A DNA stretch of 64,000 nt, taken from a virus. Of this stretch, positions 989-43,119 are shown piece after piece (positions within the stretch are counted from its first letter, which is position 1; each line of letters opens with the position of its first letter). The notes under the pieces were generated by a model. That model did no database searches, was not told where the DNA came from, and saw only the letters and a program-made list of their open reading frames with translations. The position numbers and the translations under genes are program-made. Location of the stretch: the IMG/VR virus record IMGVR_UViG_3300037852_000046, positions 1 to 64,000 of that record. One strand, written 5' to 3'.

Positions 989-1200
989 AGGTATCGAAAA
1001 AGGACCGCGCCGGCAACAACGGGCGCAACTGGTCACAGTCGGTAGAACTGCGCGACGGCAAGATGTGGGCGGATTCGAAAACGCCGTTCGGACGCACGTC
1101 TAAGAAGCCGGAAGAGGACGACCGGCCGAAAGCCACGCCGAAAGACCGGAATACGGGAAGCCCCCTGTCACGCAAGCTGGCGGGTAAGGTTATCGGATAA
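985..1200 (+). CDS. Small basic protein, 71 aa
   Basis: Conserved at 39880-40092; stop overlaps the portal start. Confidence 0.8.
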   Translation: MKVSKKDRAGNNGRNWSQSVELRDGKMWADSKTPFGRTSKKPEEDDRPKATPKDRNTGSPLSRKLAGKVIG

Positions 1201-3374
1201 TGGCCCGCAAAAAGAAAGAAGAAAAGCACGAAGACCTGCCCGTCATCGAAACGGTCGATGCACGGGCAATTGACGCTGAACGCACCGGGGAAGAGCTGGA
1301 GAATTTCGCAGAGGATATGTCCTCGGATGCCTATATTGAGGCTTGTAAGTTATACCCTAAAATTCAGCGTTGCTTCGAAAATAAACAACAGCAGTCGGAT
1401 TGGATCGAAGAATATTGGAACGTGTACAATGCGCGCCCTGATGAAAACCAGCAATACACCGGGAACTCCCAGTGCTATATCCCCGCTGTCAGGGATGCCA
1501 TCAACGCTCGTTGTAAGCGGACCCTTGCAACTCTTTTCCCCGCGAATTACAAGCACGTCGACGCTGTCGGCCCTGCCTCAGTCACCCCTTTCCCGACGTT
1601 GGCTTTACTGGAACACTACATCCGTAAGACGAATCTGAAAGATATCGTTCGCGCGGATCTGCTCTCGGGCGATGTCTCCGGCCAGTGGCTGCTTTACATC
1701 GACTGGATGCGCACCACGCGCCGCGTCACCGAACTCGTCAAGAAACCGCCTATCGTCGAGACGATGGCCGGCGACGAAGAGGACATGACGATTGAGGAAG
1801 AGTGGGACATCGAGGAGAAGACGGTCGTCGATGAGATGCCGGATATCACGCCAATGGCGGTTGACGATCTGGCAGTCTACCCGCCCACGGTGAACGATAT
1901 TGAGCGCGCGACAGCTACGGCGATTCGTCTGCGCCTGTCGAAGGAATCGGTGGAGCAGTTTATTGAAGAAGGCGTCTTCGTCGGATGGAACGCGAAAGAG
2001 ATCATGGACAATCTGAACGAGCCAGACGGCGGCCGTCAGAAGCGTGTCCCGAATAAACGCCGCACGGCAGATGCGGGCGTGCGCACCGAGGGCACGTACA
2101 AGTACGCGCTGATTTACGAAGTCCATACGAATCTGGAACTGGAAGAAGGCAAGGGCAAAGAGCCCTGCTTTGTCTACTACGCCGGTCCGGAAGTCATTCT
2201 CGGCATCATCCGTAACCCATTCTGGTCGAAGAAGCGCCCGATCATCACAGCACCCGTCGAACGGATTCAGGGAACGATTTACGGGATCTCGCGCGTCGAA
2301 CCGGTCAAATACCTCCAGTGGAATCTTAACGACTACTGGAATATGGGGCAGGACAGCGCGCAGTATGCGCTTTTGCCTATCGTCATGACCGATCCGTTAG
2401 CCAACCCCAATTACCAGAGCATGGTGATGGGGCTCGCCGCTGTGTGGTTGACGAACCCCCAGACGACCCAGTTCGCGCAGTTTCCGGCCATCTATAAAGA
2501 CGCCGTGGCTTTGTGTCAGGCGATCAAGGCGCAGATCAACGAGAGCATGGAAGTCAACGACGCCATGCTCGGCAAGATGCCGGCGGGCCGGAAGAATCAG
2601 GCACAGGCCGCAGCGCAGGCGCAGGAACAGCAGTCGAACATCATCGACCATGCGAAGCGCTACGAGGGTTGCATCCTGAACCCGTTGCTTGAGCGCATGT
2701 TCGAGCTCGACCGCCAGTTCCGCACGAAGGAACTGACCGTAGTGACGATGGGCGAGGTTGGCGCGCGTGCCAAGCAGGAAGAGATTCCGGTGCAGGCCTT
2801 CTCAGAGCGCTATTTCTTCCGCTGGTGCGGCACGGCCTACCAGACCGGTATGCAGCGCATGCAACAGATGATTGCGTGGATGAACGTGCTTCGCGGCATT
2901 CCCCCGCAGCAGCTGGACGGCAGGCGGCTCAATGTTGGTCCAATCCTGGAGATGGGAACCGAACAGATTTTCGGGCCTGAAGTCGGCCCGCGCATCCTGA
3001 TCGACGAGCGCAACCTGTTTCATGTCGAGCCATCAGACGAGAACCTGATGATGCACAACGGCTTGCCGGCGGAAGTGCATCCGGCGGACGACGATCAGCG
3101 GCACATCGCGGAGCATATGCGCGGTGCGACGCTGACCGGCGATCCGGTCGGCCTGTTCCGCGCGCACATCCAGCAGCATCAGCAGGCCATGAATCAGAAG
3201 ATGCAAAAGGCGCTTGGTCCTCCGCAAGGGCAGCAAGGCGTACCGGGCGGCGCAGGGCCAGGCGTGGCAGGTACTCCGCGCCCCGGCGCGCAACCGGGCC
3301 AGCCTCGCCCGCAAGGGCCCGCCGGAATGATTCATCCGGACACGGTTCAGGATGCACAAATGGGGCCTCGCTAA
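1200..3374 (+). CDS. Portal protein (podovirus type)
   Basis: 724 aa after TerL; Q/P/G-rich C-terminal tail typical of P22/N4-like portals. Confidence 0.85.
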   Translation: MARKKKEEKHEDLPVIETVDARAIDAERTGEELENFAEDMSSDAYIEACKLYPKIQRCFENKQQQSDWIEEYWNVYNARPDENQQYTGNSQCYIPAVRDAINARCKRTLATLFPANYKHVDAVGPASVTPFPTLALLEHYIRKTNLKDIVRADLLSGDVSGQWLLYIDWMRTTRRVTELVKKPPIVETMAGDEEDMTIEEEWDIEEKTVVDEMPDITPMAVDDLAVYPPTVNDIERATATAIRLRLSKESVEQFIEEGVFVGWNAKEIMDNLNEPDGGRQKRVPNKRRTADAGVRTEGTYKYALIYEVHTNLELEEGKGKEPCFVYYAGPEVILGIIRNPFWSKKRPIITAPVERIQGTIYGISRVEPVKYLQWNLNDYWNMGQDSAQYALLPIVMTDPLANPNYQSMVMGLAAVWLTNPQTTQFAQFPAIYKDAVALCQAIKAQINESMEVNDAMLGKMPAGRKNQAQAAAQAQEQQSNIIDHAKRYEGCILNPLLERMFELDRQFRTKELTVVTMGEVGARAKQEEIPVQAFSERYFFRWCGTAYQTGMQRMQQMIAWMNVLRGIPPQQLDGRRLNVGPILEMGTEQIFGPEVGPRILIDERNLFHVEPSDENLMMHNGLPAEVHPADDDQRHIAEHMRGATLTGDPVGLFRAHIQQHQQAMNQKMQKALGPPQGQQGVPGGAGPGVAGTPRPGAQPGQPRPQGPAGMIHPDTVQDAQMGPR

Positions 3375-3703
3375 TGATTGCGCGATCGACGCTATGGGGC
3401 ACTATCCAGTTCGGTGATGAGTTTTACAGGCTCACCGAACTGGAGCAGTGCGCCATCGTCGCGCACGAACAGGGCCATATCCATCACCGGCACACGTGGA
3501 AGCGCCTCGCGCGGCTCGTGACTTTCCGATGGAAGGGTTTCTTCGAGTTCTGCGAAGCGCAGGAACTGGAAGCGGATCGGTACGCCGCGGAACGCGGACA
3601 CGCGGCCGGCCTGATCTCTTTCCTGTTTCGCAGTAACCTGCATGTAAAATCCGCTGGATATCCGACGCATAAACAGCGCATAGAGGCTATCCATGTCCGA
3701 TGA
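3374..3703 (+). CDS. Minimal M48/M56-like zinc metallopeptidase
   Basis: AHEQGH (HExxH) plus downstream QELEADRYA (ExxAD); conserved in copy B. Confidence 0.75.
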   Translation: MIARSTLWGTIQFGDEFYRLTELEQCAIVAHEQGHIHHRHTWKRLARLVTFRWKGFFEFCEAQELEADRYAAERGHAAGLISFLFRSNLHVKSAGYPTHKQRIEAIHVR

Positions 3704-5552
3704 ATTCCGCATCATCCCCTACGTTGTGCGCTCGGCAGGCACCGATGTGCCTCCGGAAGAAGTGCAGGCCGCGATCAACTCGCTCGCGCAGCAGACCACG
3801 GTTGACCTGAACATTCTCGCCAGCCAGGCGCAAAGCCCGACTGGGCCGGCAGGCGGCGATCTCGGCGGCACCTATCCGAACCCAACTGTGGTAGGTCTGC
3901 ACGTAACGACCGGTACGGAAAGCGGTGTCACGGTTACTGGAAATACAATCAATAGTTCACCGATCGGCCAGACTACGCCGGCCGCCGGGGCTTTCACGAC
4001 GTTGACCGCGACCACGCCAATTGGCGCGGCAAGCGGCGGCACGGGCCAGAATACGTTAAGCGCGCACAATGTCCTGCTAGGTGAAGGTACAGGCGCGGTA
4101 GGCTTCGCGGCTCCGGGCGTCACTGCTCAACCCCTTGTTTCGAACGGTTCAGGCGTTGATCCTTCTTTTCAAACCCTGGGTGTAGCCGGAGGGGGGACCG
4201 GTCAGGCGTCGTTACTTTCGCATGGCGTTTTGATAGGCGAAGGAACAGGAGCCATTCATTCAACTGCCGGAACGACCGGGCAGATGCTGCTTGGCGTGAC
4301 CGGAGCGGATCCGGCTTTCGGAAACAATCCGACGATTACCGGCGGCACAATCGACAATGCGCCTATCGGAGGCACAACACCGGCTTCTGCTAAAGTTACA
4401 AGTCTGATCATCCCCAGCACAGGCACGGGCGTAAGCCAGACCTTCATAGGCTCCGGCGGCGCGGCGCTGATGTGGGAAAATCAGACAGCAGTAGCGGCGA
4501 ACGCCACCACTCCCGAAATCGGTGCGCAGTTCACCATAAATTCCAACGTTGGAACGGCCAACAAGACAACGGCGTACAAGATAGGTTTGACCTCTTCCGC
4601 CATCGGAGGAGCGAATTCTGCCAACGTCTACGGGCTCAACACTATTACGCAGGGTTTCGGCGGAACGTATCTGGTAACGGGTATCGAAAGCGATGTCAAC
4701 AATGTCGGCGCGGACTCCATAACCCTCGGGGGTTCGGCGGCGGTGTACGGACTGGTTGCGGTCGCCGCCGGAAGTTTCAAGTCAACCGCCGGCCTGTGGT
4801 TGACGAACGGGGGCTCTTCCGGCTCATGGACGTACGGATGCGCTGTATCGCAGGCGAACGTCGCAGCGTACTACGAAGCCAGCACGGCAACCGCCGGCCT
4901 GAACATCGCAGGCACGCATACCGCCGGGATAGACATGACCGCCGGCACGATGACGCATCTTATGACGTTGCCGAATAACGTCGATATCGCGCAAAAGGAT
5001 AGCGGCGGAACGCTCAGAACCCTGATCTATACTGACAACACGAACAACGTCCACTTAGGCGATCCCGCCCTGAGTTCCGTAACTTCAGAAACAAATTTCA
5101 TATCTGTTGGTTCGGTAACGCCTTCGCAGACCGGCGGCATCGTTGGCACCACTACAAACAACAATGCGAACACGGGCAGCGTGGGCGAGTATGTAACCAA
5201 CACGACGACCGGAACATCCCTCGCTACAGGTACTACCGCAAATGCAACCAGTGTTTCACTGACTGCCGGCGACTGGGACGTTACAGGTGTCGTTCGTTTT
5301 AACCCGGCGGGGACTACCACAGTAAGCAATGAATACGCAGGAATCAGTACAACATCAGCTACGCTCGGCATATTGGGCACCTTTGTACAGGATTCCGGCC
5401 CGCTCAATACCGGGTCGCAGATGTACACCACATGCCCCGTCGTGAGAGTCAGCATCGCGGCGACTACGACTGTGTACGCTGTGGCGCAGGCCACGTTCGG
5501 TACGAGTACGATGTCTTGTGATGGTTTTATCCGGGCGCGTCGTGTCCGTTGA
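3693..5552 (+). CDS. Gly/Thr-rich virion fibre protein (variable)
   Basis: GGDLGGTYPNP motif and repeated GGTGQxxLxxHxVLxGEGTGA units; mosaic relative to 43109-44893. Confidence 0.7.
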   Translation: MSDEFRIIPYVVRSAGTDVPPEEVQAAINSLAQQTTVDLNILASQAQSPTGPAGGDLGGTYPNPTVVGLHVTTGTESGVTVTGNTINSSPIGQTTPAAGAFTTLTATTPIGAASGGTGQNTLSAHNVLLGEGTGAVGFAAPGVTAQPLVSNGSGVDPSFQTLGVAGGGTGQASLLSHGVLIGEGTGAIHSTAGTTGQMLLGVTGADPAFGNNPTITGGTIDNAPIGGTTPASAKVTSLIIPSTGTGVSQTFIGSGGAALMWENQTAVAANATTPEIGAQFTINSNVGTANKTTAYKIGLTSSAIGGANSANVYGLNTITQGFGGTYLVTGIESDVNNVGADSITLGGSAAVYGLVAVAAGSFKSTAGLWLTNGGSSGSWTYGCAVSQANVAAYYEASTATAGLNIAGTHTAGIDMTAGTMTHLMTLPNNVDIAQKDSGGTLRTLIYTDNTNNVHLGDPALSSVTSETNFISVGSVTPSQTGGIVGTTTNNNANTGSVGEYVTNTTTGTSLATGTTANATSVSLTAGDWDVTGVVRFNPAGTTTVSNEYAGISTTSATLGILGTFVQDSGPLNTGSQMYTTCPVVRVSIAATTTVYAVAQATFGTSTMSCDGFIRARRVR

Positions 5553-5604: not shown

Positions 5605-6129
5605 GTGCGAAAACTCAGCAAATTGACCGCGATGATTCGCGCGTTGTTTCCCGGCGTTCAGGGGCAAACTCCCGTCATTTCTCCGATGCTCGGCGCACTG
5701 GCGGATCAAACCGGCATTATCAATTCGATTCTGTCCATCAACCCGTGGCAAGCTGCTATCTACAACGCAGCCTCGAACACGACGGGCTTCACGGCTACCC
5801 AGTCGCAGATCATGGGTGCGGAAACAACCGTACTGAACCTGACGGGCACGCTCGGCGCGGGCGCTGCACTTACGCTCCCTACGGCGGCCGTGATGCAGGC
5901 GACGATGACCCCGCAGCAGGCAGTAGTCGGGTCAACTACTACGCTTCGCGTAATCAATAGCTCGGGCGGTGCTTTCTCCTGGACAGTTACTACGGCCACT
6001 GGATGGACGCTTAACGGAACCATGACGGTAGCGCAAAATACCTGGCGCGATTTCATCGTGACGATCACGGCTGTCGGGGCTACGCCGACGATGACGCTTC
6101 AGGCGATCGGCACTGGCACGCAATCGTAA
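5605..6129 (+). CDS. Putative head decoration/minor capsid protein with LFPG leader
   Basis: CAGGAG RBS, GTG start; Thr-rich beta-type protein upstream of scaffold and MCP. Confidence 0.65.
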   Translation: MRKLSKLTAMIRALFPGVQGQTPVISPMLGALADQTGIINSILSINPWQAAIYNAASNTTGFTATQSQIMGAETTVLNLTGTLGAGAALTLPTAAVMQATMTPQQAVVGSTTTLRVINSSGGAFSWTVTTATGWTLNGTMTVAQNTWRDFIVTITAVGATPTMTLQAIGTGTQS

Positions 6130-6138
6130 GGAATGACA

Positions 6139-6864
6139 ATGAACAAGCTGCTTAAAAAGCTGCTCGGCCTTCTTTTCCCGGGGATTGACGGCGATGATAC
6201 TGATGTTGATCCTCCTGAACTTCCTGAGTCACCTGATCCCGATGGTGATGATCCTGATCTTGATCTTGACCTTGATCTGCCTGACGATACTCCTGCACGC
6301 GCCGCCCCGCGCCGTGACGATTCTGGTGAGCGCCTGGCTCGGCTGGAAGCTGAAGTCTCGGCAGCGAAGCGTTATGCGGATGAAGTCAAATCTCGCCAGC
6401 CCGCTCCGGTAGACAGCGAGTTCCAGCGGGAAGAGGAAAAGCTTCGCAATCCGGAAACGACGGAACTGGAGCGCTGGCAGATCCAGTCAAATCGCACTCT
6501 ACGGGAAGCGAAAGCCGAAGCGCGCCAGGCGAGGCTTGAAGCGGCCGACATGATCGACCGCACGCGGTTCGAGTCGAAGAATTCGACCGACCCGCGCCGC
6601 GCGAAGTATGCGGAGCGCGTGGAAGAGGCGATCCAGCAGGAGCGTGCGCAGGGGCGCAACGCGTCGCGCGAGGCTGTCTACTTCTACATGCTTGGCAAGG
6701 ATATCGCAGAGGGCAAGCTCAAAGCGAAGGCGAAACCGGCATCGAAAACGCCGGACGTGCCGCGCGGCAGGTCTCCGGGGGTTCGGAGCGACGTTCAGGG
6801 CCGGGGCAGGCCCACGACTGATAAAGACAAGCTTCGTGCTCGTCTCGAAAATCAGAATATTTAA
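6139..6864 (+). CDS. Putative scaffolding protein with LFPG leader
   Basis: Acidic disordered N-region, coiled coil and basic C-terminus; directly upstream of MCP. Confidence 0.75.
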   Translation: MNKLLKKLLGLLFPGIDGDDTDVDPPELPESPDPDGDDPDLDLDLDLPDDTPARAAPRRDDSGERLARLEAEVSAAKRYADEVKSRQPAPVDSEFQREEEKLRNPETTELERWQIQSNRTLREAKAEARQARLEAADMIDRTRFESKNSTDPRRAKYAERVEEAIQQERAQGRNASREAVYFYMLGKDIAEGKLKAKAKPASKTPDVPRGRSPGVRSDVQGRGRPTTDKDKLRARLENQNI

Positions 6865-6879
6865 CCACGAGAGGAAACC

Positions 6880-8301
6880 ATGTCCTACCTCAAGAAACTG
6901 GGCCTCATGTGGGCCTCGCTGTTCCCCGGCGTGACAAACCAGTCAACCAGTTTTACGGCTGACGTTGAAGCATACATTCAGGAAGAAGTCGAGCCACTGG
7001 CCCGCCGGCAACTGGTCGCATACCAGTTCGGCAAGCCGCTCAAGCTCGATACGAATCGCGGCACGACCTACACGGCTTCGCGCTACCAGCGTCTTCCGCT
7101 GCCGTTCGCGCCGTTGCAGGAAGGCGTCGCGCCCCCCGGCGAGGCGATGGCGCTGCAACAGGTCTCGGCGACCGCGCAGCAATGGGGCGATCGCGTCATC
7201 ATCACCGACGTGGCGAACCTGACCATCAAGCACCCGCTCTTCCAGCAGGCCTGCGAACTGGTCGCGCTTCAGCTTCCGGAAACGCTCGAACGCAACACGA
7301 TGAATACGCTGATGGCGGCCACGCAGGTGAACTTCGCCAACGGCAAAACGTCGCGCGCCAACCTGCTCGCCACCGATGTCATGACGCCGCACGAGAACAA
7401 CCGCATTGTCGGAACGTTCCTGACCTATGGCGTTCCGCGCTTCATGGGCGACGAGCGGGAAGACATGATGATCGAGGCGGGCGCGTATCGCGATCCATCG
7501 AAGTCGCCGGCCGTGATGCAGCACTACATCGGCCTGATTCACCCGCTGTCGGCGCAGGATATGCGCGAGAACACGACCGTGGCCAATGCCTGGTCGTACA
7601 GCGACATCAACCGCCTGTACAACAACGAACTCGGCCCGTTTGGCGGCACGCGCTTTGTCGAATCGAACATGATTCCGTTCTTCACGGGCGTGGCTGCGAT
7701 CCAGGGCACGGCTTCGGCTTCGGGCGGCACGCTCGCGACGAACGCCGGTTACCAGATCATCGTAACCGCTTCGCCGGCGCAGACTTCGGTTGAACAGCAG
7801 ATCTACCAGGTGTCGAATGCGATCTCGGTTACTGGCCCGACTGGTTCTATCAGCGTTGTCCTGCCCCAACTGGCCGGCTACGTGTTCAACATCTACATCG
7901 GCACGTCGGCCACGCCGTCCAACCTTGCAACCGCAATCGGTCTCGGCGTTCCGGCTACCGGCCCCCTGGCCGGCCAGGCAACGCAGCTTCTGCCGAACCA
8001 AACTGTCACCCTGACAGGCATCGGCGTCGCGCAAACGCCGCCGGCCGCTCCGGCCACGGGCGTTTCAGTATTCCCGACGATATACATCGGCAATCACTCG
8101 TACGGTCAGGTGCTGCTCGAAAACCCCGAGTTTCACTATCTGACGGGCCCTGACAAGTCAGATCCGCTGAATCAGACGCGCGTGGTAAGCTGGAAAGTGT
8201 TCTACGGCTCGATCATCCTCAACCAGGCGTTTTTGGCTCGCGTTGAAGCCGGTTCTGCCTTCAGCACGACGTTCTCCGCCGGCACTGTGACAACCCCGTA
8301 A
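6880..8301 (+). CDS. Major capsid protein, N4-gp56-like, with an internal beta-rich insertion
   Basis: LQEGVAPPG, QWGDRVIITD, KSDPLNQTRVVSWK motifs; nearly identical in copy B. Confidence 0.9.
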   Translation: MSYLKKLGLMWASLFPGVTNQSTSFTADVEAYIQEEVEPLARRQLVAYQFGKPLKLDTNRGTTYTASRYQRLPLPFAPLQEGVAPPGEAMALQQVSATAQQWGDRVIITDVANLTIKHPLFQQACELVALQLPETLERNTMNTLMAATQVNFANGKTSRANLLATDVMTPHENNRIVGTFLTYGVPRFMGDEREDMMIEAGAYRDPSKSPAVMQHYIGLIHPLSAQDMRENTTVANAWSYSDINRLYNNELGPFGGTRFVESNMIPFFTGVAAIQGTASASGGTLATNAGYQIIVTASPAQTSVEQQIYQVSNAISVTGPTGSISVVLPQLAGYVFNIYIGTSATPSNLATAIGLGVPATGPLAGQATQLLPNQTVTLTGIGVAQTPPAAPATGVSVFPTIYIGNHSYGQVLLENPEFHYLTGPDKSDPLNQTRVVSWKVFYGSIILNQAFLARVEAGSAFSTTFSAGTVTTP

Positions 8302-12182: not shown

Positions 12183-12512
12183 ATGCGCAAGAAAGAACCT
12201 ATTTGCCCGCTCCTGAAGAAAGAATGCATTGGGGATGGCTGCATGTTCTGGACGCATATGCTCGGTACGAACCCTCAAACCGGGCAGCCGGTAGACCAGT
12301 TCGACTGCTCGATCAGATGGCTGCCGGTGTTGATCCTCGAAAATGCGCGTATGACGCGCGGCGCGCAGGCGGCGGTAGAATCGATGCGAAATGAAGTAGT
12401 GCAGCGGCAGGACGCTCTTAATAACGCCGTGGCGCTAGGCCAGCGTGAAGCGGCAAAGCGAATCGGGGAACAGGAATGCCAGACGATAGAACGCTTACCG
12501 AATCAGACGTAA
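12183..12512 (+). CDS. Cys-containing fibre-associated protein (copy A only)
   Basis: CPLLKKECIGDGCMFW; lost together with the collar fibre in copy B. Confidence 0.65.
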   Translation: MRKKEPICPLLKKECIGDGCMFWTHMLGTNPQTGQPVDQFDCSIRWLPVLILENARMTRGAQAAVESMRNEVVQRQDALNNAVALGQREAAKRIGEQECQTIERLPNQT

Positions 12513-12670
12513 AGGCGATAGTCGATGAGTTGGAAAGACGCGCTACACAGCGGTTTCAGATCAATATTGGGCGGGGGGTGCTTGGTCTGGCGTGGAAAGC
12601 CTGCCTGTACCTCGCGATATGGCTTGCCGCCTACGGCGCTGCCGGAGGCTTCAAGAAATTTTTCAACTAG
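12476..12670 (+). CDS. Single-TM protein (holin/antiholin candidate)
   Basis: C-terminal hydrophobic helix; upstream of the endolysin; conserved in B. Confidence 0.6.
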   Translation: MPDDRTLTESDVKAIVDELERRATQRFQINIGRGVLGLAWKACLYLAIWLAAYGAAGGFKKFFN

Positions 12671-12680
12671 GAGTAGCATC

Positions 12681-12893
12681 ATGAGTTTCTGGACTGATAT
12701 CGAAGCCGAATTCAATTCCGTCGTCGCGAGCGCGGATAGCATCCCGGCAAAGCTCGAAGCCCTGGTCGGGATCCAGAGCAAGGCCGCGCAGATGACCGCG
12801 CTCACCAACCAGATCACGGCCATCCTTGAAGACGGTTCGAAAGCGAACGCCGACAAGGTGACGGAAATCCTGACGGCGGTAGGCAAACTGTGA
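12681..12893 (+). CDS. Hypothetical helical protein, 70 aa
   Basis: TAGGAG RBS; conserved at 52401-52613. Confidence 0.7.
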   Translation: MSFWTDIEAEFNSVVASADSIPAKLEALVGIQSKAAQMTALTNQITAILEDGSKANADKVTEILTAVGKL

Positions 12894-13432
12894 GCCCCGA
12901 GACACTGGCAGCGGCGCTTGGGGTTCCTTCGGCTCGCGCGCAAACGTGGGCCGATCCGCTTTCTGCGGCGATGGCTCTTTATGCTATCGATTCGCTCAAG
13001 AGGCAGGCGGCGTTCCTCGCCCAGGTAGGTCACGAGTCCGGCAGGTTGATCTATGTCCGGGAACTGTGGGGGCCGACGCCCGCACAGGAAGGCTACGAGG
13101 GACGCGCGGATCTCGGCAATACCGAGCCAGGTGACGGGTTCAAGTTCCGTGGCCGTGGCCTGATTCAGGTCACAGGGCGCGCGAATTACGCGACATGCGG
13201 CGCGGCGCTGTGTCTGCCTCTGACCGACTCGCCGGAACTGCTTGAGTCTCCGTCCAATGCTGCGCAGTCGGCGGCGTGGTTCTGGAATTCGCGCGGTCTG
13301 AACGCTTTCGCCGATGTCATGGACTTCGAGACGATCACGCGAAGGGTTAATGGCGGTTTGAACGGGTGGGATGACCGCGTGGCGCTCTGGAAAATGGCGC
13401 TCGCCGCATTTGGAGCAGACAATGGCACTTGA
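12890..13432 (+). CDS. Endolysin, glycoside hydrolase family 19
   Basis: FLAQVGHES, FRGRGLIQVTGRANY, SAAWFW, ITRRVNGG motifs. Confidence 0.92.
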   Translation: MSPETLAAALGVPSARAQTWADPLSAAMALYAIDSLKRQAAFLAQVGHESGRLIYVRELWGPTPAQEGYEGRADLGNTEPGDGFKFRGRGLIQVTGRANYATCGAALCLPLTDSPELLESPSNAAQSAAWFWNSRGLNAFADVMDFETITRRVNGGLNGWDDRVALWKMALAAFGADNGT

Positions 13433-13811
13433 TCCGGTCACGGCAGGAATCGACCTAGCTACTACGATCGTTGGACGCATCTGGCCGGACAAGACGGCGC
13501 AGGAGCAACAGCAACTCGCCGCTACCCTATCCATGATCCAGGGGCAAATGACGATCAACCAGGCGGAAGCGGGCAACGCCAGCACCTTCGTCGCCGGCTG
13601 GCGGCCCTTCATCGGTTGGGTATGCGGTCTCGCATGCGCCTGGAACTGGATGGGCTTGCCTGTCGCCAAGGTAGTTCTCGATTACTTCGGGCACACAATC
13701 TTGATGTCGCCCGCCGATCTGTCGGAGATGATGCCGGTTTTGATGGGCATGCTTGGGCTTGGCGGGCTGCGCACGTTTGAGAAGGTGCAGGGCGTGGCGA
13801 GGATGAAATGA
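13422..13811 (+). CDS. Holin (GTA 3TM / DUF3154-like)
   Basis: FVAGWRPFIGWVC and GMLGLGGLRTFEK motifs. Confidence 0.85.
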   Translation: MALDPVTAGIDLATTIVGRIWPDKTAQEQQQLAATLSMIQGQMTINQAEAGNASTFVAGWRPFIGWVCGLACAWNWMGLPVAKVVLDYFGHTILMSPADLSEMMPVLMGMLGLGGLRTFEKVQGVARMK

Positions 13812-14371
13812 ACCACCTTGTAAAAATCGCTCACGGCATCGATACGGCTCCGGTCCTGCTTGAGATCGCGCGCCAGCCCAAGCTATGGAACCGGCACACG
13901 GTCAGGAAGACGGCACCGGAGACCCCGCACGCCGCGATGGACGATATCTGGCTGCGCTACCGGGATGAGAAGCCGTTTAGGGAATCGGGCGACTACTCGA
14001 CATTCAATGACGAGCATGACGCGATCTTCTACCCGGAATGGTTCGCGCTGCCCAGCGTGCGCCCTATCGTCTACAGTCTCATGGCGCGCGTTCAGGCGGT
14101 ACGCCTGGGCGGTGTGATGATCACCCGGATCCCGCCGGGGGGTCGAATTGACCCGCACGCAGACGACGGCTGGCACGCCACGTATTACAATACGAAATTG
14201 TATGTCGTGCTTCAGTCGAATCCGCAGTGCGTCAATCGCGTGGAAGAGGAGCGCGTCTCGATGGCACCGGGCGATGTCTGGTACTTCGACAACCTGAAAG
14301 AGCATGAAGTCGTGAACGACGGTCCGGACGACCGGATCACGCTGATTGTGTGCCTGAGGTGCGAAAAATGA
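13808..14371 (+). CDS. Asp/Asn beta-hydroxylase family 2OG-Fe(II) oxygenase
   Basis: PGGRIDPHAD (HxD), WYFDNLKEHEVVN (distal H), DRITLIV (2OG-binding R). Confidence 0.85.
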   Translation: MNHLVKIAHGIDTAPVLLEIARQPKLWNRHTVRKTAPETPHAAMDDIWLRYRDEKPFRESGDYSTFNDEHDAIFYPEWFALPSVRPIVYSLMARVQAVRLGGVMITRIPPGGRIDPHADDGWHATYYNTKLYVVLQSNPQCVNRVEEERVSMAPGDVWYFDNLKEHEVVNDGPDDRITLIVCLRCEK

Positions 14372-14649
14372 TCAGGCATTACTTTTCAGGTGGCGCTTAC
14401 GTACGGGAGCAAACGCTGGCGGAAGGGCTCGAAGTCGAAAAGCACGAACACGACTACGACCACGTGAGTTACCTGTGCGCCGGTCGCGCGCTGCTCGACG
14501 TGGACGGCGAACTGGAATATCTGACCGGGCCGTGCGCCATTCTGATCAAGGCGGGCTGTAGACACCGGATTGCGGCTCTGACAGACATCACCTGGCTTTG
14601 CATTCACGCGGAGAGCGTTGCGGATCCGGAAACCATTGTGAAGGAGTGA
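14368..14649 (+). CDS. Cupin-fold protein
   Basis: HEHDYDH...G...HRIAAL...WLCIH. Confidence 0.8.
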   Translation: MIRHYFSGGAYVREQTLAEGLEVEKHEHDYDHVSYLCAGRALLDVDGELEYLTGPCAILIKAGCRHRIAALTDITWLCIHAESVADPETIVKE

Positions 14650-18920: not shown

Positions 18921-18938
18921 ACTATAGCAAATGCGAAA
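18921..18938 (-). promoter_or_regulatory. Extended -10 promoter with partial palindromic operator
   Basis: Reverse strand GCATTTGCTATAGT; motif recurs five times in the window. Confidence 0.6.
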
Positions 18939-20281
18939 TGAAAATACTAGTCATCGATGTGGGTAGCAATGCGCTCGACCTCTGCATGCGCTGGCAGCAT
19001 CAGGGCCATGAGGTGAAGTGGTACGACAAACCGCGTCCCGATGGGACGGACCGCCATGCCGGAGAGGGAATCGTGGAGAAGATCCGCGATTTCAACGACC
19101 TGAGAAAGAAGTGGATCGGGTGGGCGGACCTCATCTATACCCCTGACAACGTTTCCTACCTCGATCTGCTCGAACCGTATCGCAGGATCGGTTACCCTAT
19201 CTTTGGATGCAACCTTGCCGGTGTTGAGTGGGAGCTCGACCGCGAAGTCGGCCAGAAGGTCATGGCCGACTGCGGCATGCCGATCATTCCGGGCAAGACG
19301 TTTCATGACTACGATTCAGCGATCGCTTACGTAAAGAAGGAGGGTAAAGCGTTCGTCTCCAAGCCGTCCGGTGACGGCGAGCGTGCAATGTCCTACGTCG
19401 CGAATAACGCGGCGGATATGGTCTACATGCTGGAGCGCTGGAAGAAGATTCCGAAGTACGTGAAAGCGGCCAAGGAAGAAGGGTTTATTCTCCAGACCAA
19501 GATAGACGGGATGGAAATGGCAGTCGGCGGATGGTTTGGCTCGGCGGGCTGGAGCCGTGCCGGGTGGGTGGAGAACTTCGAGAACAAGAAGCTCATGAAT
19601 GGCGATCTCGGAGTCAACACCGGCGAAATGGGCACGACGGTTCGCGTCGTCAAGAAATCCCGGCTGGCGGATATGGCCCTGAAGCCAGCGACAGATCACC
19701 TCCACCGCATCGGGTATGTGGGCTACGTCGACGTGAATTGCATGATAACGCACGATGGAACCCCCTACCCTCTTGAGTGGACGATGCGCGACGGCTGGCC
19801 GATCCGCCACAACCTGACTGCGTTGATCGAAGGCGACCAAGCGCAGTGGATGCTCGATCTGGTAAACGGTAAGGACTCACTTAAAATCAAGACCGACACC
19901 GTGTGTATCTCTGTCCTGATGGCGCTTCCTGATTTCCCGTACTCGAAGATCACGAACAAGGAACTCTGCGGAATTCCGATTTACAATGCGGAAGACATGG
20001 ATCACCTTCACTTTTCCGAAGTCATGATCGGCAACGCGCCGCGCGAGATTAACGGGAAGGTGGTTGATCTTCCGGGACCGGTTACCGCCGGGGATTACGT
20101 TCTGGTTGCCACGGGTACGGGGCAGTCCATAACAGGTGCGCGGCGCAGTGCTTACAGCGCCCTGAAAAAGGTAAAGATACCCAATAGCCCGTTTTACAGG
20201 ACGGACATTGGCGCAGGACGGTTGAAGAAGCAGTTGCCGGAACTTCAGGCTCTTGGCTTTGCGACGGGTCTTTCTTACTAG
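18938..20281 (+). CDS. PurD (GAR synthetase)-like ATP-grasp ligase
   Basis: WELDRxxG, VSKP, GDLGVNTGEMG, GYVDVN, PLEWTMRDGWP, YRTDIG parallel the PurD motifs NTGGMG, LEFNxRFGDP, YRxDIG. Confidence 0.8.
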   Translation: MKILVIDVGSNALDLCMRWQHQGHEVKWYDKPRPDGTDRHAGEGIVEKIRDFNDLRKKWIGWADLIYTPDNVSYLDLLEPYRRIGYPIFGCNLAGVEWELDREVGQKVMADCGMPIIPGKTFHDYDSAIAYVKKEGKAFVSKPSGDGERAMSYVANNAADMVYMLERWKKIPKYVKAAKEEGFILQTKIDGMEMAVGGWFGSAGWSRAGWVENFENKKLMNGDLGVNTGEMGTTVRVVKKSRLADMALKPATDHLHRIGYVGYVDVNCMITHDGTPYPLEWTMRDGWPIRHNLTALIEGDQAQWMLDLVNGKDSLKIKTDTVCISVLMALPDFPYSKITNKELCGIPIYNAEDMDHLHFSEVMIGNAPREINGKVVDLPGPVTAGDYVLVATGTGQSITGARRSAYSALKKVKIPNSPFYRTDIGAGRLKKQLPELQALGFATGLSY

Positions 20282-30793: not shown

Positions 30794-31077
30794 TGTCGAT
30801 TGGAAAATTCAAGCAGTGGCTGGCGGAATCGACTCCCGCTGAGAAACGGGAGCTTGCGATTAAAGCATCCACGTCCGTCAGTACGCTCTGGCAGATTTCC
30901 TACGAGGTGCGCGGCAACGGTAAACCGTTCAACGCATCTTCGGAACTCGCAGGGCGTATCGAGCGGGCAATCACATCGATCAACAAGCGCCGTCGTCATG
31001 CCCCGCTTCCTGAAGTGCGGAAGGGGGACATCTCGAAGGATTGCGCGAAGTGCCGTTTCTACAAGGAATGCGAATAA
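30793..31077 (+). CDS. Cro-like HTH protein with C-terminal Cys cluster
   Basis: RELAIKASTSVSTLWQI...ASSELAGRIE; CAKCRFYKEC. Confidence 0.6.
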
Positions 31078-31166
31078 TGAAACTCGGTTTAGTTATTGGT
31101 GTATTTGGCGTAATCGTAGGTATCTTTATCTTTTTTCTCTATCTGGTTTTTTTTGCGGACTACTGA
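31077..31166 (+). CDS. 29-aa single-TM peptide (MKLGLVIGVFGVIVGIFIFFLYLVFFADY)
   Basis: TAATG coupling; AT-rich. Confidence 0.55.
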   Translation: MKLGLVIGVFGVIVGIFIFFLYLVFFADY

Positions 31167-31168
31167 AA

Positions 31169-31432
31169 ATGGTACCTCTTGTAGATTTTGCGGTACGTCT
31201 GGTGCAGCTCAAGAATGAAGGGAAGTGGAGCCAGAAGGATCTTGCGGAAAAGATCCGCGTTAACCCGGCCACGTTGTCGAACTATGAACACCGGCATTTC
31301 GTCCCGGATCTGTGGACGCTGCTTGAGATCGCAAAGGTGTTTGACGTGTCGCTCGACTATCTTTGCGGTTTGTCAGAAGTGCGCAAACCGGTGGTGAACA
31401 TGCTGCTCAAGGACTGGAAGGAAAGACAATGA
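31169..31432 (+). CDS. XRE-family HTH regulator
   Basis: SQKDLAEKI.V...TLSNYE....PD...L..IAKVFDVSLDYLCG. Confidence 0.88.
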   Translation: MVPLVDFAVRLVQLKNEGKWSQKDLAEKIRVNPATLSNYEHRHFVPDLWTLLEIAKVFDVSLDYLCGLSEVRKPVVNMLLKDWKERQ

Positions 31433-37199: not shown

Positions 37200-37393
37200 G
37201 GAAGTGCAAAACCCCAGGGGCCATGTTTCATTTCATGGTCGGCGCGCCTAATGCGGCGGGTCAGACTGAGATCCGCGCGGGCGTCACGCTACCCGGGGGG
37301 GTCACCGTCGATGAGGCCACGGCCGAAAAACTGGACAGGGCGTTTCACGACGCGATGGAAAGGGTTCTGGCTCCTTTGTGGAAGGTGAAATAA
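37196..37393 (+). CDS. Hypothetical protein, 65 aa
   Basis: Coupled to TerL by TAATG. Confidence 0.65.
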   Translation: MRKCKTPGAMFHFMVGAPNAAGQTEIRAGVTLPGGVTVDEATAEKLDRAFHDAMERVLAPLWKVK

Positions 37394-39396
37394 TGAGCCT
37401 GACGAACGCCTCCATGCTCCGGGTGATATCGGAGGACCGGGCACTCGCCAGCGCCATGGTGTTCCCGCACCGGCATCCGCAGCAAAGTCCCCCGGCGCAC
37501 GTGAGGATCATGGACGCATGGCGCAGTGTTGACCCGCTGGTGCTCATCGAGATGTTCCGGGAAGGAGGGAAGAGCACCCTGTCGGAGGAGTTCCTGCTGC
37601 TCGAAGCCGGCTTCGGCAACATGGGCTATTGCATCATCATTGGCGAGACATACACCAAGGCGTGCCAGCGACTGGAGGCGATCAAGTTTGAGGCGGCGAC
37701 CAACACGAAGCTCCTGAGCCTGTTCGGCAAGATGGCGAAGTGCGCCGGCAGGCTGTGGAACGAACACCAGTTCGAACTTCCAAACGGCGTGCTTCTGGAA
37801 GCGCACGGTTGGGAGGAAGAGTTCCGGGGGTTCAAGTGGCATGACCTGCGGCCTGACCGCGCGTATCTGGACGACATCGAGAACCGGGAGCGGGTGAAGG
37901 ACGCTGCGACGGTGAAGAAGAGCGTGAACAAGCTCTATCTCGAACTGATGCCTGCGATGGACAAGGAGAAGGGGAAAATCCGCATCACCGGGACGCCACT
38001 GGCCGAGGACTGCATGATCACGCGGCTGCGGGCGAACCCCGACTGGACGAGTTTCCAGTTTCCGATCTGCAACGGGGAAATTGACGACCCGGCGACCGTT
38101 GCCACGTGGCCGGAGCGGTATCCGATGGAGTGGGTCCGGGGGAAGCGCGACCAGATGGAGCGCGCCGGGGAACTGAACGGATTCTTGCAGGAGTACATGC
38201 TCAAGGCAATCGGCACGGCCGACAAGCCATTCGAGGAGCGCCATTTACATGAGATTGCGATCGATCCTGCACCTTGGCTGCCGCGTACTCTGGTGGTGGA
38301 TCCTGCCCGCACTGCTAACGTGGGCAGTTCTGACCGGACGGGCCGAGTGGTTCTTTCTCGGCTCGGAACCCGTATCTACGTGCATGCAAGCTCCGGCGAG
38401 TACTGGAAGCCAGATGCCATCATCGCCGACGCTTTTGACACATCCCGCAGATTTGATGCCGCAACTGTGGCGATAGAGAAGAATTCGCTGGACGAGTGGC
38501 TTTTGCAACCGCTGCGCGCGGAGATGCTGCGACGCGGGGAGAGCCTGCCGCTGAAGGCGATTCAGGCACCGCAGGACCGTTCGAAAGAACAGTTCATCCT
38601 CGGGCTGCAACCCTTCTTCGAAGCCGGGGACATCGTGCTCGTCGGAGGACGCGGCGCGCACAGCCAGCTTGTGGCGGAAATCCTGAACTTTCCGAGCGGC
38701 AAGCGGGATATACTGAACGCGCTGGCGTACGCCCAGCGGGTGTTTTCAGGAGTACCGGTGTATGAAGACTTCGGGGCATGGAATCTCATCGAAGGGTACG
38801 AGCCAAGCGCGCGAGATAGCTTGGCTCTGTGTTTTAACGCTTCAGGTTCTGACACTACGGCTGCTCTGGTTTCTGTTGAAGGTGAGCGCATGGTTGCCGT
38901 GGCCGACTGGATCTCGCCTGTTTCTCCTGCTCAAGCTGTACCGGACATCGTGCGCCTTGTCCGCGCGACTTTCCCTCGAGCGAAGGTGAACGCGTGGCTG
39001 CCGGCCGACGTGATGGATCAGGCGGACCGCATGCCGTTGCTCGCCGCGATGCGCGCGGCGAAACTGATGCCGATGCGCGGCGCGTACCCCTCACTGGCGC
39101 GCGGCGCGCTTAGCCCGCTGATCCGCACGGAGATGAAGGGCAAGCGCCTGTTCCTCGTTGACTCTCAGGCGCGGCATACGATGAACGCCCTGGCCGGCGG
39201 ATACGTGTTCCCGATGAGCAAGTCCGGGCAGCAGGGCACGGAACCGGAGCGCGGGCCGCATCGCACGTTGATCGAAGGGCTGGAAGCGGCGGCGTACGTA
39301 ATCTGCTCCAGCGCTGGAAATTCCTTGACAGATGAGTTACATTTGGCGTCAAACCCCCATGGGGCTCAATATTTCACTTCTCTTCCTCGGAGATGA
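37393..39396 (+). CDS. terL: Terminase large subunit
   Basis: FREGGKST Walker A variant, YLDDIE Walker B, GTPL, FLQEYM, VVDPA nuclease motif, AIEKN. Confidence 0.9.
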   Translation: MSLTNASMLRVISEDRALASAMVFPHRHPQQSPPAHVRIMDAWRSVDPLVLIEMFREGGKSTLSEEFLLLEAGFGNMGYCIIIGETYTKACQRLEAIKFEAATNTKLLSLFGKMAKCAGRLWNEHQFELPNGVLLEAHGWEEEFRGFKWHDLRPDRAYLDDIENRERVKDAATVKKSVNKLYLELMPAMDKEKGKIRITGTPLAEDCMITRLRANPDWTSFQFPICNGEIDDPATVATWPERYPMEWVRGKRDQMERAGELNGFLQEYMLKAIGTADKPFEERHLHEIAIDPAPWLPRTLVVDPARTANVGSSDRTGRVVLSRLGTRIYVHASSGEYWKPDAIIADAFDTSRRFDAATVAIEKNSLDEWLLQPLRAEMLRRGESLPLKAIQAPQDRSKEQFILGLQPFFEAGDIVLVGGRGAHSQLVAEILNFPSGKRDILNALAYAQRVFSGVPVYEDFGAWNLIEGYEPSARDSLALCFNASGSDTTAALVSVEGERMVAVADWISPVSPAQAVPDIVRLVRATFPRAKVNAWLPADVMDQADRMPLLAAMRAAKLMPMRGAYPSLARGALSPLIRTEMKGKRLFLVDSQARHTMNALAGGYVFPMSKSGQQGTEPERGPHRTLIEGLEAAAYVICSSAGNSLTDELHLASNPHGAQYFTSLPRR

Positions 39397-40092: not shown

Positions 40093-40628
40093 AGACCTGT
40101 TCTAAATGCGGACAGGAAAAGCCATTGACAGAGTTTTCATTTCTGAAAGGCGTTCCACGTTCACATTGCAAAGTATGCAAGGCGACCACGGCAGCAGAAT
40201 GGCGTAAGGCAAACCCCGGCCGGATGGAGGCAAAATCCGCCGAATGGTACGCGCAAAACGCAAAACGCAAACAGGAAACGAACGCGACATGGCGCGCGGC
40301 GAATCCTGAGAAAGCGAAAGCGGCGCAAGTGAAGGCTACGGCGCGTTGGCGTGAAGCGAATCCGCATCGAGTGACCGCCAAGCAGGCTAGGCGGACGGCG
40401 GCGCAACTTCAGGCGACGCCCACGTGGGCGGATGAAAAGGCTATCAGGCAGTATTATCTGATAGCAAATTACCTGTCGGTGGAATTGAATTCTCCGTTTC
40501 AGGTAGATCACGTAGTGCCGCTTCAGTCAAAAGAGGTATGCGGCTTGCATGCCCAAACTAATCTGTCGATCCTGCCAGCGGCATGGAACGCAAAGAAAGG
40601 CAATCGGACATGGCCCGGAAAGCCGTAA
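40089..40628 (+). CDS. HNH homing endonuclease (copy B only)
   Basis: CSKC..CKVC zinc finger; ATPTWAD...QVDHVVPL..VCGLH. Confidence 0.88.
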   Translation: MKTCSKCGQEKPLTEFSFLKGVPRSHCKVCKATTAAEWRKANPGRMEAKSAEWYAQNAKRKQETNATWRAANPEKAKAAQVKATARWREANPHRVTAKQARRTAAQLQATPTWADEKAIRQYYLIANYLSVELNSPFQVDHVVPLQSKEVCGLHAQTNLSILPAAWNAKKGNRTWPGKP

Positions 40629-42790
40629 AAAAGAAAGAAGAATTTGAGGACCAGCCGGTTATTGAGACCGTGGGTTCGCGCGTCATCGACGCGGAACGCC
40701 TTGATGAAAAGCTGGAAAATTTCGCGGAAGACCTCGGCTCAGACGCGATGATCGAAGCGGCCAAGTTGTACCCGAAAATTCAGAAGAGCTACGAGAACAA
40801 GCAACAGCAGTCCGACCGCGTGGAAGAATGCTGGAACATCTTTAATGCAATTCCCGATGAGAATCAGCAGTATACCGGAAATTCGCAATGTTATGTTCCA
40901 ATAGTCAGAGATTGCATCAATGCACGTTGTAAACGCACTCTCGCTACTCTCTTTCCCGCCAATTACAAGCACGTAGACGCCATTGGACCTTCCAGCGTTA
41001 CGCCGTTTCCTACACTCGCCCTGCTCGAACACTACATCCGAAAGACGAATCTGAAGGATATCGTTCGCGCGGATCTGCTTTCGGGCGATGTAACCGGCCA
41101 GTGGCTGCTTTACGTGGACTGGATGCGTACGACACGGCGAATCACTGAGCTTGTAAAGAAGCCACCGATTGTCGAGACCCTGTCGGGCGAGGAAGAGGAC
41201 GTTACGATCGAAGAAGAATGGGATGTTGAAGAAAAGACGATCGTTGACGAAATGCCGGACATTACCCCGATGGCCGTTGACGATCTCGCGGTCTACCCCC
41301 CTACAGTGAACGACATCGAGAAGGCTACGGCCACGGCGATTCGTCTGCGCCTGTCGAAGGAATCCGTCGAGCAGTTCATTGAAGAAGGTGTCTTCGTCGG
41401 CTGGAACGCGAAAGAGATCATGGACAATCTGAACGAGCCGGACGGCGGCCGCCAGAAACGCGTCCCGAACAAGCGCCGCACGGCAGATGCCGGCGTGCGC
41501 ACCGAGGGCACGTACAAGTACGCGCTGATTTACGAAGTCCATACGAATCTGGAACTGGAAGAAGGCAAGGGCAAAGAGCCTTGTTTTGTCTATTACGCCG
41601 GCCCGGAAGTCATTCTCGGTATCATCCGAAACCCGTTCTGGTCGAAGAAGCGCCCCATCATTACGGCACCCGTTGAGCGGATTCAGGGAACGATTTACGG
41701 GATCTCGCGTGTCGAACCCGTGAAGTACCTCCAGTGGAACGTGAACGATTTCTTCAACATGGGGATGGATAGCGCTCAATACGCGCTTTTGCCTATCGTC
41801 ATGACCGATCCGTTAGCCAACCCCAATTACCAGAGTATGGTGATGGGGCTAGCCGCTGTGTGGCTCACGAACCCGCAAACAACACAATTCGCGCAGTTCC
41901 CGGCGATATACAAAGATTCCATCGCGCTTTGTAATGCAATCAAGGCGCAGATCAAAGAATCGATGGATGTCAATGACGCGATGCTTGGGACCCTCCCCCC
42001 AGGCAGGAAGAATCAGGCGCAGGCCGCAGCGCAGGCGCAGGAGCAACAGTCGAATATCATCGACCACGCGAAGCGTTACGAAGGTTGCATTTTGAACCCG
42101 TTGCTGGAACGCATGTTTGAGCTCGACCGTCAGTTTCGTACGAAGGAACTTACGGTCGTCACGATGGGCGAAGTCGGAGCTCGAGCAAAACAGGAAGAAA
42201 TCCCGGTTCAGGCATTCAGCGAGCGCTACTTCTTCCGCTGGTGTGGCACAGCCTATCAGACCGGAATGCAGCGCATGCAGCAGATGATTGCGTGGATGAA
42301 CGTGCTGCGCGGCATCCCCCCGCAGCAACTGGACGGCCGGCGGCTCAACGTCGGCCCGATTCTGGAGATGGGCACTGAGCAGATTTTCGGGCCGGAAGTC
42401 GGCCCGCGTATCCTGATCGATGAGCGCAATCTGTTCCACGTTGAGCCGTCAGACGAGAACCTGATGATGCACAACGGTTTGCCAGCGGAAGTGCATCCGG
42501 CGGATGACGATCAGCGGCACATCGCGGAGCATATGCGCGGTGCGACGCTGACCGGCGATCCGGTCGGCCTGTTCCGCGCGCACATCCAGCAACATCAGCA
42601 GGCCATGAACCAGAAGATGCAAAAGGCACTTGGGCCGCCGCAAGGGCAACAGGGCATACCCGGCGGCGCGGGCCCAGGCGTGGCCGGCACCCCGCGACCG
42701 GGCGCACAACCCGGCCAGCCTCGCCCGCAAGGCCCGCCCGGTATGGTGAATCCGGATCAGGTTCAGGATGCACAGATGGGGCCGCGCTAA
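40610..42790 (+). CDS. Portal protein
   Basis: Homolog of 1200-3374; start overlaps the HNH 3' end. Confidence 0.85.
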   Translation: MARKAVKKKEEFEDQPVIETVGSRVIDAERLDEKLENFAEDLGSDAMIEAAKLYPKIQKSYENKQQQSDRVEECWNIFNAIPDENQQYTGNSQCYVPIVRDCINARCKRTLATLFPANYKHVDAIGPSSVTPFPTLALLEHYIRKTNLKDIVRADLLSGDVTGQWLLYVDWMRTTRRITELVKKPPIVETLSGEEEDVTIEEEWDVEEKTIVDEMPDITPMAVDDLAVYPPTVNDIEKATATAIRLRLSKESVEQFIEEGVFVGWNAKEIMDNLNEPDGGRQKRVPNKRRTADAGVRTEGTYKYALIYEVHTNLELEEGKGKEPCFVYYAGPEVILGIIRNPFWSKKRPIITAPVERIQGTIYGISRVEPVKYLQWNVNDFFNMGMDSAQYALLPIVMTDPLANPNYQSMVMGLAAVWLTNPQTTQFAQFPAIYKDSIALCNAIKAQIKESMDVNDAMLGTLPPGRKNQAQAAAQAQEQQSNIIDHAKRYEGCILNPLLERMFELDRQFRTKELTVVTMGEVGARAKQEEIPVQAFSERYFFRWCGTAYQTGMQRMQQMIAWMNVLRGIPPQQLDGRRLNVGPILEMGTEQIFGPEVGPRILIDERNLFHVEPSDENLMMHNGLPAEVHPADDDQRHIAEHMRGATLTGDPVGLFRAHIQQHQQAMNQKMQKALGPPQGQQGIPGGAGPGVAGTPRPGAQPGQPRPQGPPGMVNPDQVQDAQMGPR

Positions 42791-43119
42791 TGATTGCACG
42801 TTCGACGCTATGGGGCACTATCCAGTTCGGTGATGAGTTTTACAGGCTCACCGAACTGGAGCAGTGCGCCATCGTTGCACATGAGAAGGGCCACATCCAC
42901 CACCGGCACGCATGGAAACGCCTCGCGCGTCTCGTGACTTTCAGATGGAAAGGCTTTTTCGAGATGTGCGAAGCGCAGGAACTGGAAGCGGACCGCTACG
43001 CCGTGGCGCGCGGCCATGTGCCCGGACTGATCTCTTTCCTGCTTCGCAGTAACCTGCATGTAAAATCGGCCGGATATCCGACGCACAAACAGCGCATAGA
43101 GGCTATCCATGTCCGATGA
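42790..43119 (+). CDS. Minimal M48-like zinc peptidase
   Basis: AHEKGH, ELEADRYA. Confidence 0.75.
   Translation: MIARSTLWGTIQFGDEFYRLTELEQCAIVAHEKGHIHHRHAWKRLARLVTFRWKGFFEMCEAQELEADRYAVARGHVPGLISFLLRSNLHVKSAGYPTHKQRIEAIHVR

Follow-up and report, generated by a model that had tools for sequence, protein, structure and literature searches.

Closest Described Systems

To our knowledge, the head-maturation proteases characterised in tailed phages are all serine proteases, apart from a host cysteine protease borrowed by phage 80alpha. The classical prohead proteases (HK97 gp4/S78, T4 gp21, P2 gpO, lambda gpC, and phiKZ gp175) are, as far as we know, all of the assemblin or ClpP/SppA type of serine protease, and podoviruses of the N4 and T7 types are generally regarded as having no need of a head protease. 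The present report deals with a gene for a 109-residue zinc peptidase of the M48 type at positions 3374–3703 (plus strand) of a 64,000-nucleotide stretch of viral DNA, hereafter the window, which comprises the first 64 kb of the 79,073-bp virus record IMGVR_UViG_3300037852_000046. Like the genes of the classical proteases, it lies between the portal gene and the capsid gene, and its product is presumed to have the same job, which is to process the capsid and scaffold proteins as the head matures. It differs from them in its fold, which is that of an M48 metalloprotease. The best explanation, with a probability of roughly 0.6, is that the gene encodes a minimal, soluble zinc endopeptidase of the M48 fold that serves as the head-maturation protease of this phage group and would remove short N-terminal leaders from the head proteins.

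In phage 80alpha, a single protease, Prp, reads an N-terminal motif found on both the capsid and the scaffold protein and removes 13–14 residues (PMC5744158). The phages described here likewise have a short N-terminal motif common to capsid and scaffold, although this motif is unrelated to that of 80alpha and changes between phage lineages. Prp is a cysteine protease of the host and acts mainly on ribosomal protein L27, whereas the candidate here is a zinc peptidase encoded by the phage. By analogy, it would probably represent a phage-encoded metalloprotease counterpart of the Prp-dependent trimming in 80alpha.

Members of the M48 family (Ste24p/ZMPSTE24, HtpX, BepA, and Oma1; PF01435) share with the phage peptidase the HExxH motif, a glutamate-bearing helix of the ExxAD type, a C-terminal [H/Y]P..R motif, and the fold. 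The phage protein differs from them in that it has no transmembrane chamber, TPR, or periplasmic domain, is only 109 residues long, is encoded in a head operon, and has cytoplasmic head proteins as its presumed substrates. The minigluzincins (proabylysin, 4JIU, and projannalysin/selecase), archaeal proteins of about 105 amino acids, resemble it as stand-alone soluble cores with HExxH and a glutamate ligand. The relatedness is weak (a profile of the peptidase family matched proabylysin at E 0.068, and the structural comparison reached Z 4.6 with 4jiu, over 68 residues, and Z 3.7 with 4qhf), and the phage peptidase is closer to Ste24 than to the minigluzincins, for which we know of no phage or head context. 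M48 peptidases, minimal gluzincins, proteolytic head maturation, and leader trimming are thus already known, and what is new is their combination. An incomplete literature search found no paper on an M48 or other metalloprotease as the prohead protease of a tailed phage.

A Predicted Minimal M48 Core

A preliminary description of this DNA had proposed an M48-like zinc peptidase, and this identity is borne out by Pfam, by a profile match to Ste24p, and by a fold match to ZMPSTE24. The match to the Pfam family Peptidase_M48 is confined to the HExxH stretch and scores 21.6 bits, just above the cut-off of 20.3. All three M48 signatures are present, namely HExxH (HEQGH, residues 31–35), the glutamate ligand in an ExxAD-type helix (Glu64 in ELEAD, residues 64–68), and the C-terminal [H/Y]P..R motif (Y96-P97...R102). 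A profile of a 60-sequence alignment matched Ste24p (E 4.6e-9) and ZMPSTE24 (E 1.6e-8) along the HExxH helix and the glutamate helix alike, with Glu64, Ala67, and Asp68 aligned to the 'E[YF]QADA[YF]A' helix of these enzymes. The AlphaFold2 model has a predicted local distance difference test score (pLDDT) of 96 and consists of two short strands, four main helices, and a short turn helix. A Foldseek search with this model gave M48 throughout the top ten matches. In an exhaustive structural comparison, the catalytic domain of ZMPSTE24 (6bh8_A) superposed over 103 of the 109 residues (Z 10.0, root-mean-square deviation 2.0, 24% identity), followed by further M48/M56 matches, namely 3c37 (Z 7.9), BepA (7.0), Ste24p (6.9), and BlaR1 (5.5), with proabylysin lower (4.6). 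Judged by the Pfam score, the profile E-value to Ste24p, and the modelled fold, the match to M48 far exceeds a chance occurrence of HExxH. No signal peptide and no hydrophobic span of transmembrane length were found in the peptidase, which is therefore a bare, soluble M48 catalytic core; the seven-helix membrane chamber of the Ste24-type M48 subfamily A is absent from this 109-residue protein. By predicted fold and by residues, it is a genuine minimal M48 catalytic core, for which zinc binding and activity are predicted.

Small size and an intact active site are shared by the relatives. Close homologues (n = 58) have 108–123 residues, and many of them lie on contigs of 38–42 kb. A wider search at E <= 1e-3 returned 215 representative clusters; of the best 150 listed, nearly all have 80–240 residues. 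His31, Glu32, His35, Glu64, Ala67, Asp68, Pro97, and Arg102 are invariant in the alignment of 60 homologues. The possibility that the protein is a non-catalytic relic, or a chaperone-like protein in which the fold alone is kept, has no specific point in its favour. It is very improbable given that all 102 distinct peptidases of the related loci retain HExxH, Exx[A/S/C]D, and P..R, and with them the zinc ligands and the catalytic glutamate, and that the two copies of the gene in the window differ with a ratio of nonsynonymous to synonymous change (dN/dS) of only 0.09 (dN 0.037, dS 0.41), which indicates strong purifying selection.

The second copy (42790–43119, plus strand) also encodes 109 residues, is 93% identical to the first, and has HEKGH in place of HEQGH together with ELEAD, so that HExxH and ExEAD are intact in both copies as had been claimed. 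The existence of two copies also stands. They are not paralogues, however, since the 79,073-bp record consists of two related phage genomes of about 39.4 kb each, arranged head to tail and here called units A and B, which are 71–92% identical in nucleotide sequence across shared blocks, and each copy belongs to a separate genome. The record also has a 71-bp terminal repeat. It may derive either from prophages in tandem or from an assembly chimera of two strains.

The first copy is tightly embedded among late genes. The portal gene of unit A (1200–3374, plus strand) encodes a 724-residue protein of the T7/N4 type that matches the portal/connector families PHROG 332 and 1216 (E 4e-11 and 7e-10). 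Its stop codon and the ATG of the peptidase gene share one base in the sequence TAATG at 3372–3376, in agreement with the proposed coupling to the portal, and the last 11 nucleotides of the peptidase gene overlap the next gene, whose ATG is at 3693. Because of these overlaps at its start and end, the open reading frame is translationally coupled on both sides and therefore lies within a tightly coupled late operon. The GC content at third codon positions (GC3) of the peptidase gene is like that of the neighbouring genes. The portal gene of unit B is located at 40583–42790 (plus strand).

A weak match to Pfam M78 (IrrE) was also obtained (E 0.053, 13.8 bits against a cut-off of 22). Together with the temperate nature of these phages, relatives of which are integrated in Paraburkholderia and Burkholderia genomes, and with a cI-like helix-turn-helix protein encoded at 30800–31432, this sub-threshold match could suggest a regulatory protease like ImmA/IrrE or BlaR1, which would control lysogeny by cleaving a repressor. 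Such a role is hardly to be expected, as the helix-turn-helix gene is 27 kb away, the peptidase gene sits in a late structural operon, the best fold matches are to Ste24/ZMPSTE24 and not to IrrE, and no match of the IrrE type stands out.

Short Leaders on the Head Proteins

Three proteins encoded downstream of the peptidase gene in unit A, all on the plus strand, begin with a leader. The first, p5518 (5605–6129, 174 residues), has a leader at residues 1–17 (nucleotides 5605–5655) that ends in LFPG and is followed by valine. In the second, an acidic, coiled-coil, scaffold-like protein (6133–6864, 243 residues), the leader (nucleotides 6133–6183) ends in LFPG and is followed by isoleucine. The third is the major capsid protein of the N4 gp56 family (6880–8301, 473 residues; TIGR04387, E 4.9e-37; PHROG 1357), with a leader at residues 1–17 (nucleotides 6880–6930) ending in LFPG before V18. 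Their counterparts in unit B, also on the plus strand, are p5518 at 44946–45452 (LFPA, then isoleucine), the scaffold-like protein at 45462–46196 (LFPG, then isoleucine), and the capsid protein at 46212–47633, whose leader is the same as in unit A. In both units the leaders have 17–19 residues and consist of a basic start, a hydrophobic or amphipathic stretch, and LFP[G/A] before Val/Ile, and no other protein of units A and B was found to carry one. Across the clade, leaders of 13–25 residues are common to the capsid, the scaffold, and the spike-like protein, and relatives have three to five leader-bearing proteins per genome.

The capsid leader has the appearance of a propeptide. Among 25 capsid proteins, both the length and the sequence of the leader differ, with Pro16 invariant and Gly17 nearly so, whereas most positions from Val18 to Phe50 are invariant. 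A variable leader followed by invariant sequence from Val18 is the pattern of a propeptide boundary. The N4 gp56 profile begins at about residue 20 of the capsid protein, and six capsid homologues that lack a leader have their Met1 aligned with residues ~15–20 of the leader-bearing capsid.

The scaffold-like gene is the immediate upstream neighbour of the capsid gene, and its product has an acidic low-complexity tract after the leader. In p5518, the GTG start and the leader are conserved in relatives, and the AlphaFold2 model (pLDDT 84) shows the leader as a helix that a linker connects to a beta-sandwich. This domain is similar in structure to tailspike modules and to the C-terminal module of the capsid spike of phage Pa223 (9ny6_C, Z 8.7). 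Since p5518 is spike-like, all three leader-bearing proteins would be parts of the head or virion. Two p5518 homologues of divergent relatives (L137:11023-11469 and L143:9246-9698) start at the junction and have no leader, and the capsid and scaffold proteins of the same loci keep theirs; these homologues may be regarded as a natural 'pre-cleaved' form. Four other loci, from divergent members of the clade (L243, L256, L269, and L272), encode four or five leader-bearing proteins with one lineage-specific junction each, the additional proteins being of ~265–285 residues and, right after the peptidase, of ~120 residues.

A reading of the leaders as Sec-type signal peptides was considered and rejected, given their short hydrophobic core, the cytoplasmic nature of head proteins, and the presence of Pro, Gln, or Arg at P1 in some lineages. 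A complex prediction with the peptidase alignment, the N-terminal 50 residues of the capsid protein, and zinc gave 0.20 and 0.11 against a mark of 0.32, which speaks neither for nor against an interaction.

Distribution of the Peptidase and the Leaders

In all, 274 loci were fetched, of which 154 contained both the end of the portal gene and the start of the capsid gene and formed the test set, with capsid identity down to 55%. The peptidase was found between these two points in 154 of 154 loci (profile E < 1e-3), which together hold the 102 distinct peptidase sequences, and the capsid protein had a leader wherever its N-terminus was readable. It lies at most 30 nucleotides from the portal gene in about 90 of the 154 loci and up to 4.3 kb downstream in the others; in part of the clade it sits just before the scaffold gene. 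The position immediately after the portal, as first described, holds for the window and for these ~90 loci, but not for the others. The six nearest leaderless phage genomes with N4-type capsids (MW202637, MW202477, Bacillus phage Pony, Pseudoalteromonas phage vB_Pun_Y3, Pseudomonas phage Rollin, and Stenotrophomonas phage StenR_269) all lacked the peptidase at E <= 1, with the same profile that finds every positive genome. The phylogenetic profiling of the gene against the leaders that had been suggested at the outset therefore came out in favour of the proposed association.

These results also bear on the view that the peptidase is an accessory gene product directed at a host or rival-phage protein, as in takeover, exclusion, or counter-defence, whose place in the head operon is incidental. 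Small phage metallopeptidases with no assigned target exist, BFVD holds M48-like proteins of other viruses, and the peptidase evolves faster than its neighbours, with identities among relatives of 36–100% compared with 67–100% for the portal and 78–99% for the capsid. Accessory genes, though, are usually patchy in occurrence and have their own signals, whereas this gene is present in all 154 deeply diverged loci, always within the portal-to-capsid block, is translationally coupled, matches its neighbours in GC3, and is absent from the leaderless relatives. An accessory role is accordingly quite improbable.

The capsid type is encoded in at least 388 IMG/VR stretches, and the hosts belong to the Burkholderiales. 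Among 50,697 deposited phage records, none contained a match to the peptidase, and none contained a capsid match above 27.5% identity, so that no cultured member is at hand. Scans of viral contigs with single distant homologues (P0104, P0131, and P0083) gave no match. A survey of 401 sampled genomes from the host phylum yielded no independent second context for the peptidase; the M48 proteins found there were a prophage copy, the hosts' own M48s of ~420–450 amino acids, and one 226-residue, lipoprotein-type, non-phage M48.

A search for other head proteases was made with Pfam and PHROGs. Among the other open reading frames of at least ~100 amino acids in one genome unit, no S78, U35, ClpP, or other protease family was recognised, as the preliminary description had stated, and no tested frame matched the prohead-protease families S78, S77, S80, S73, S49, or S14.

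Co-variation of the Junctions

The LFPG leaders that had been described are indeed present in the window. As a general feature the motif does not hold, however, being lineage-specific and not fixed as LFPG. Junction variants among the relatives include FPG|V, L-x-L-G|V, SP[G/A]|[V/I/L], [S/T]RG|V, RPA|V, ESQ|L, and LPL|V. Within the same genome, the junctions of capsid and scaffold resemble each other, as in the pairs LFRPA|V and FIRPA|I, VFSRG|V and VLSRG|I, VFESQ|L and RLECQ|V, and FLTLG|V and FLTLG|I. Over 58 distinct capsid-scaffold pairs, the identity at P4–P1 was 1.93, compared with 1.19 (standard deviation 0.09) in shuffled pairs, and none of 10,000 shuffles reached the observed value. 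When each motif class was reduced to a single representative (26), the values were 1.54 and 0.83, and again none of 10,000 shuffles reached the former. This co-variation implies that the motif is read by something that co-evolves with it. The P1' residue is almost always Val, Ile, or Leu; a hydrophobic S1' pocket is usual in gluzincins, and a hydrophobic P1' fits such a pocket.

The same observations can be read in another way, in which the peptidase is a head-assembly protease with a different job, for instance the degradation of the scaffold once assembly is over, and the leader is an assembly or targeting signal that stays uncleaved or is cleaved by the host. A gene fixed in the head module makes a head role likely either way, and the scaffold, acidic and largely of low complexity, is taken to be an easy protease substrate. 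The co-variation fits any common reader of the junction and is equally expected if a chaperone, the portal, or the scaffold plays that part. Assembly of 80alpha requires the shared leader, on the scaffold whether it is cleaved or not, but can do without its removal (PMC5744158), so that a leader can be important even where its cleavage has no maturation role of its own. Several further points weigh against the peptidase as the leader protease. The scaffold junctions were located with a heuristic that set several of them off by a few residues, an error that works against the co-variation result. The co-occurrence of peptidase and leaders is statistically weak because both mark one clade, and its perfection may reflect a single gain of each trait. 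Within the clade, no lineage with leaders but without the peptidase, or the reverse, was found, and the sharp test is therefore missing.

Despite these points, a different target for the peptidase seems unlikely. The break in conservation falls exactly at the junction, P1 is small and P1' hydrophobic, and leaderless homologues start at this point, as is typical of a removed propeptide; in addition, no other candidate reader of the junction stands out.

Proposed Removal of the Leaders

Observed here are the leaders and their co-variation, the fold and catalytic residues of the peptidase, and its unvarying position in the head module; a role of the peptidase as leader protease, which the preliminary description had put forward and which these findings support in part, would build on them as follows. 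The capsid, the scaffold, and the spike-like head protein would be made with a short N-terminal leader in which a basic start and a hydrophobic or amphipathic helix of 8–15 residues lead up to a junction with a small final residue. The junction would be bound as an extended strand in the cleft of the peptidase, where zinc would be held by His31, His35, and Glu64, with Glu32 as the general base. The cut would fall before the invariably hydrophobic Val, Ile, or Leu (in the window, after LFP[G/A] and before [V/I]) and would free N-termini at the points where the leaderless homologues begin. Catalysis, the identity of the substrates, the exact scissile bond, and the timing of the cut in assembly are predictions of this scheme.

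Other Features of the Genomes

The gene that overlaps the end of the peptidase gene (3693–5552, plus strand) encodes a fibre-like protein of 619 residues (PHROG 11393, tail fibre, E 1e-4). It lies between the peptidase gene and the leader-bearing genes, has no leader, and is variable among relatives. The gene is swapped between the units (3693–5552 compared with 43109–44893), with only about 100 nucleotides (103) alike, and relatives share only the first ~110 or the last ~150 residues of the protein. It may thus be described as a cassette of the receptor-binding type amid a head module.

The genome unit also encodes T7-like replication genes and a large terminase (37378–39396). The gap between the terminase and portal genes (519–1200) contains only short, very basic plus-strand open reading frames of 45–71 residues and a long antisense frame. 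No integrase was recognised in the record, and the open reading frame at 12506–13669 (minus strand) has no Pfam match. A PurD-like ATP-grasp protein (18938–20281; GARS_A, E 1.6e-9; GARS_C, E 5.5e-8) is encoded within a block of virion and ejection protein genes; no purine genes are nearby, and a role as a protein ligase or in modification is conceivable. An Asp/Asn beta-hydroxylase-like protein (13808–14649; PF05118, E 8e-16) is encoded in the late region next to a small cupin protein, and the two may form a pair for lysogenic conversion or virion modification.

Implications for Phage Head Maturation

The evidence leans somewhat towards a new head-maturation system, in which a minimal soluble M48 zinc protease removes lineage-specific leaders from the capsid, scaffold, and spike-like proteins and the protease and junction co-evolve, in a large clade of podovirus-like phages and prophages, with genomes of ~38–42 kb, from the Burkholderiales and relatives. 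If this is true, short leaders with matching specific proteases could serve as orthogonal pairs for tag removal. The peptidase would be the smallest natural M48 enzyme with defined substrates and would provide a soluble model for the catalysis of Ste24, HtpX, and BlaR1. It would also be the first metalloprotease acting as a prohead protease in tailed phages and a new catalytic class in virus maturation, and capsids of the N4/T7 type could then depend on proteolysis.

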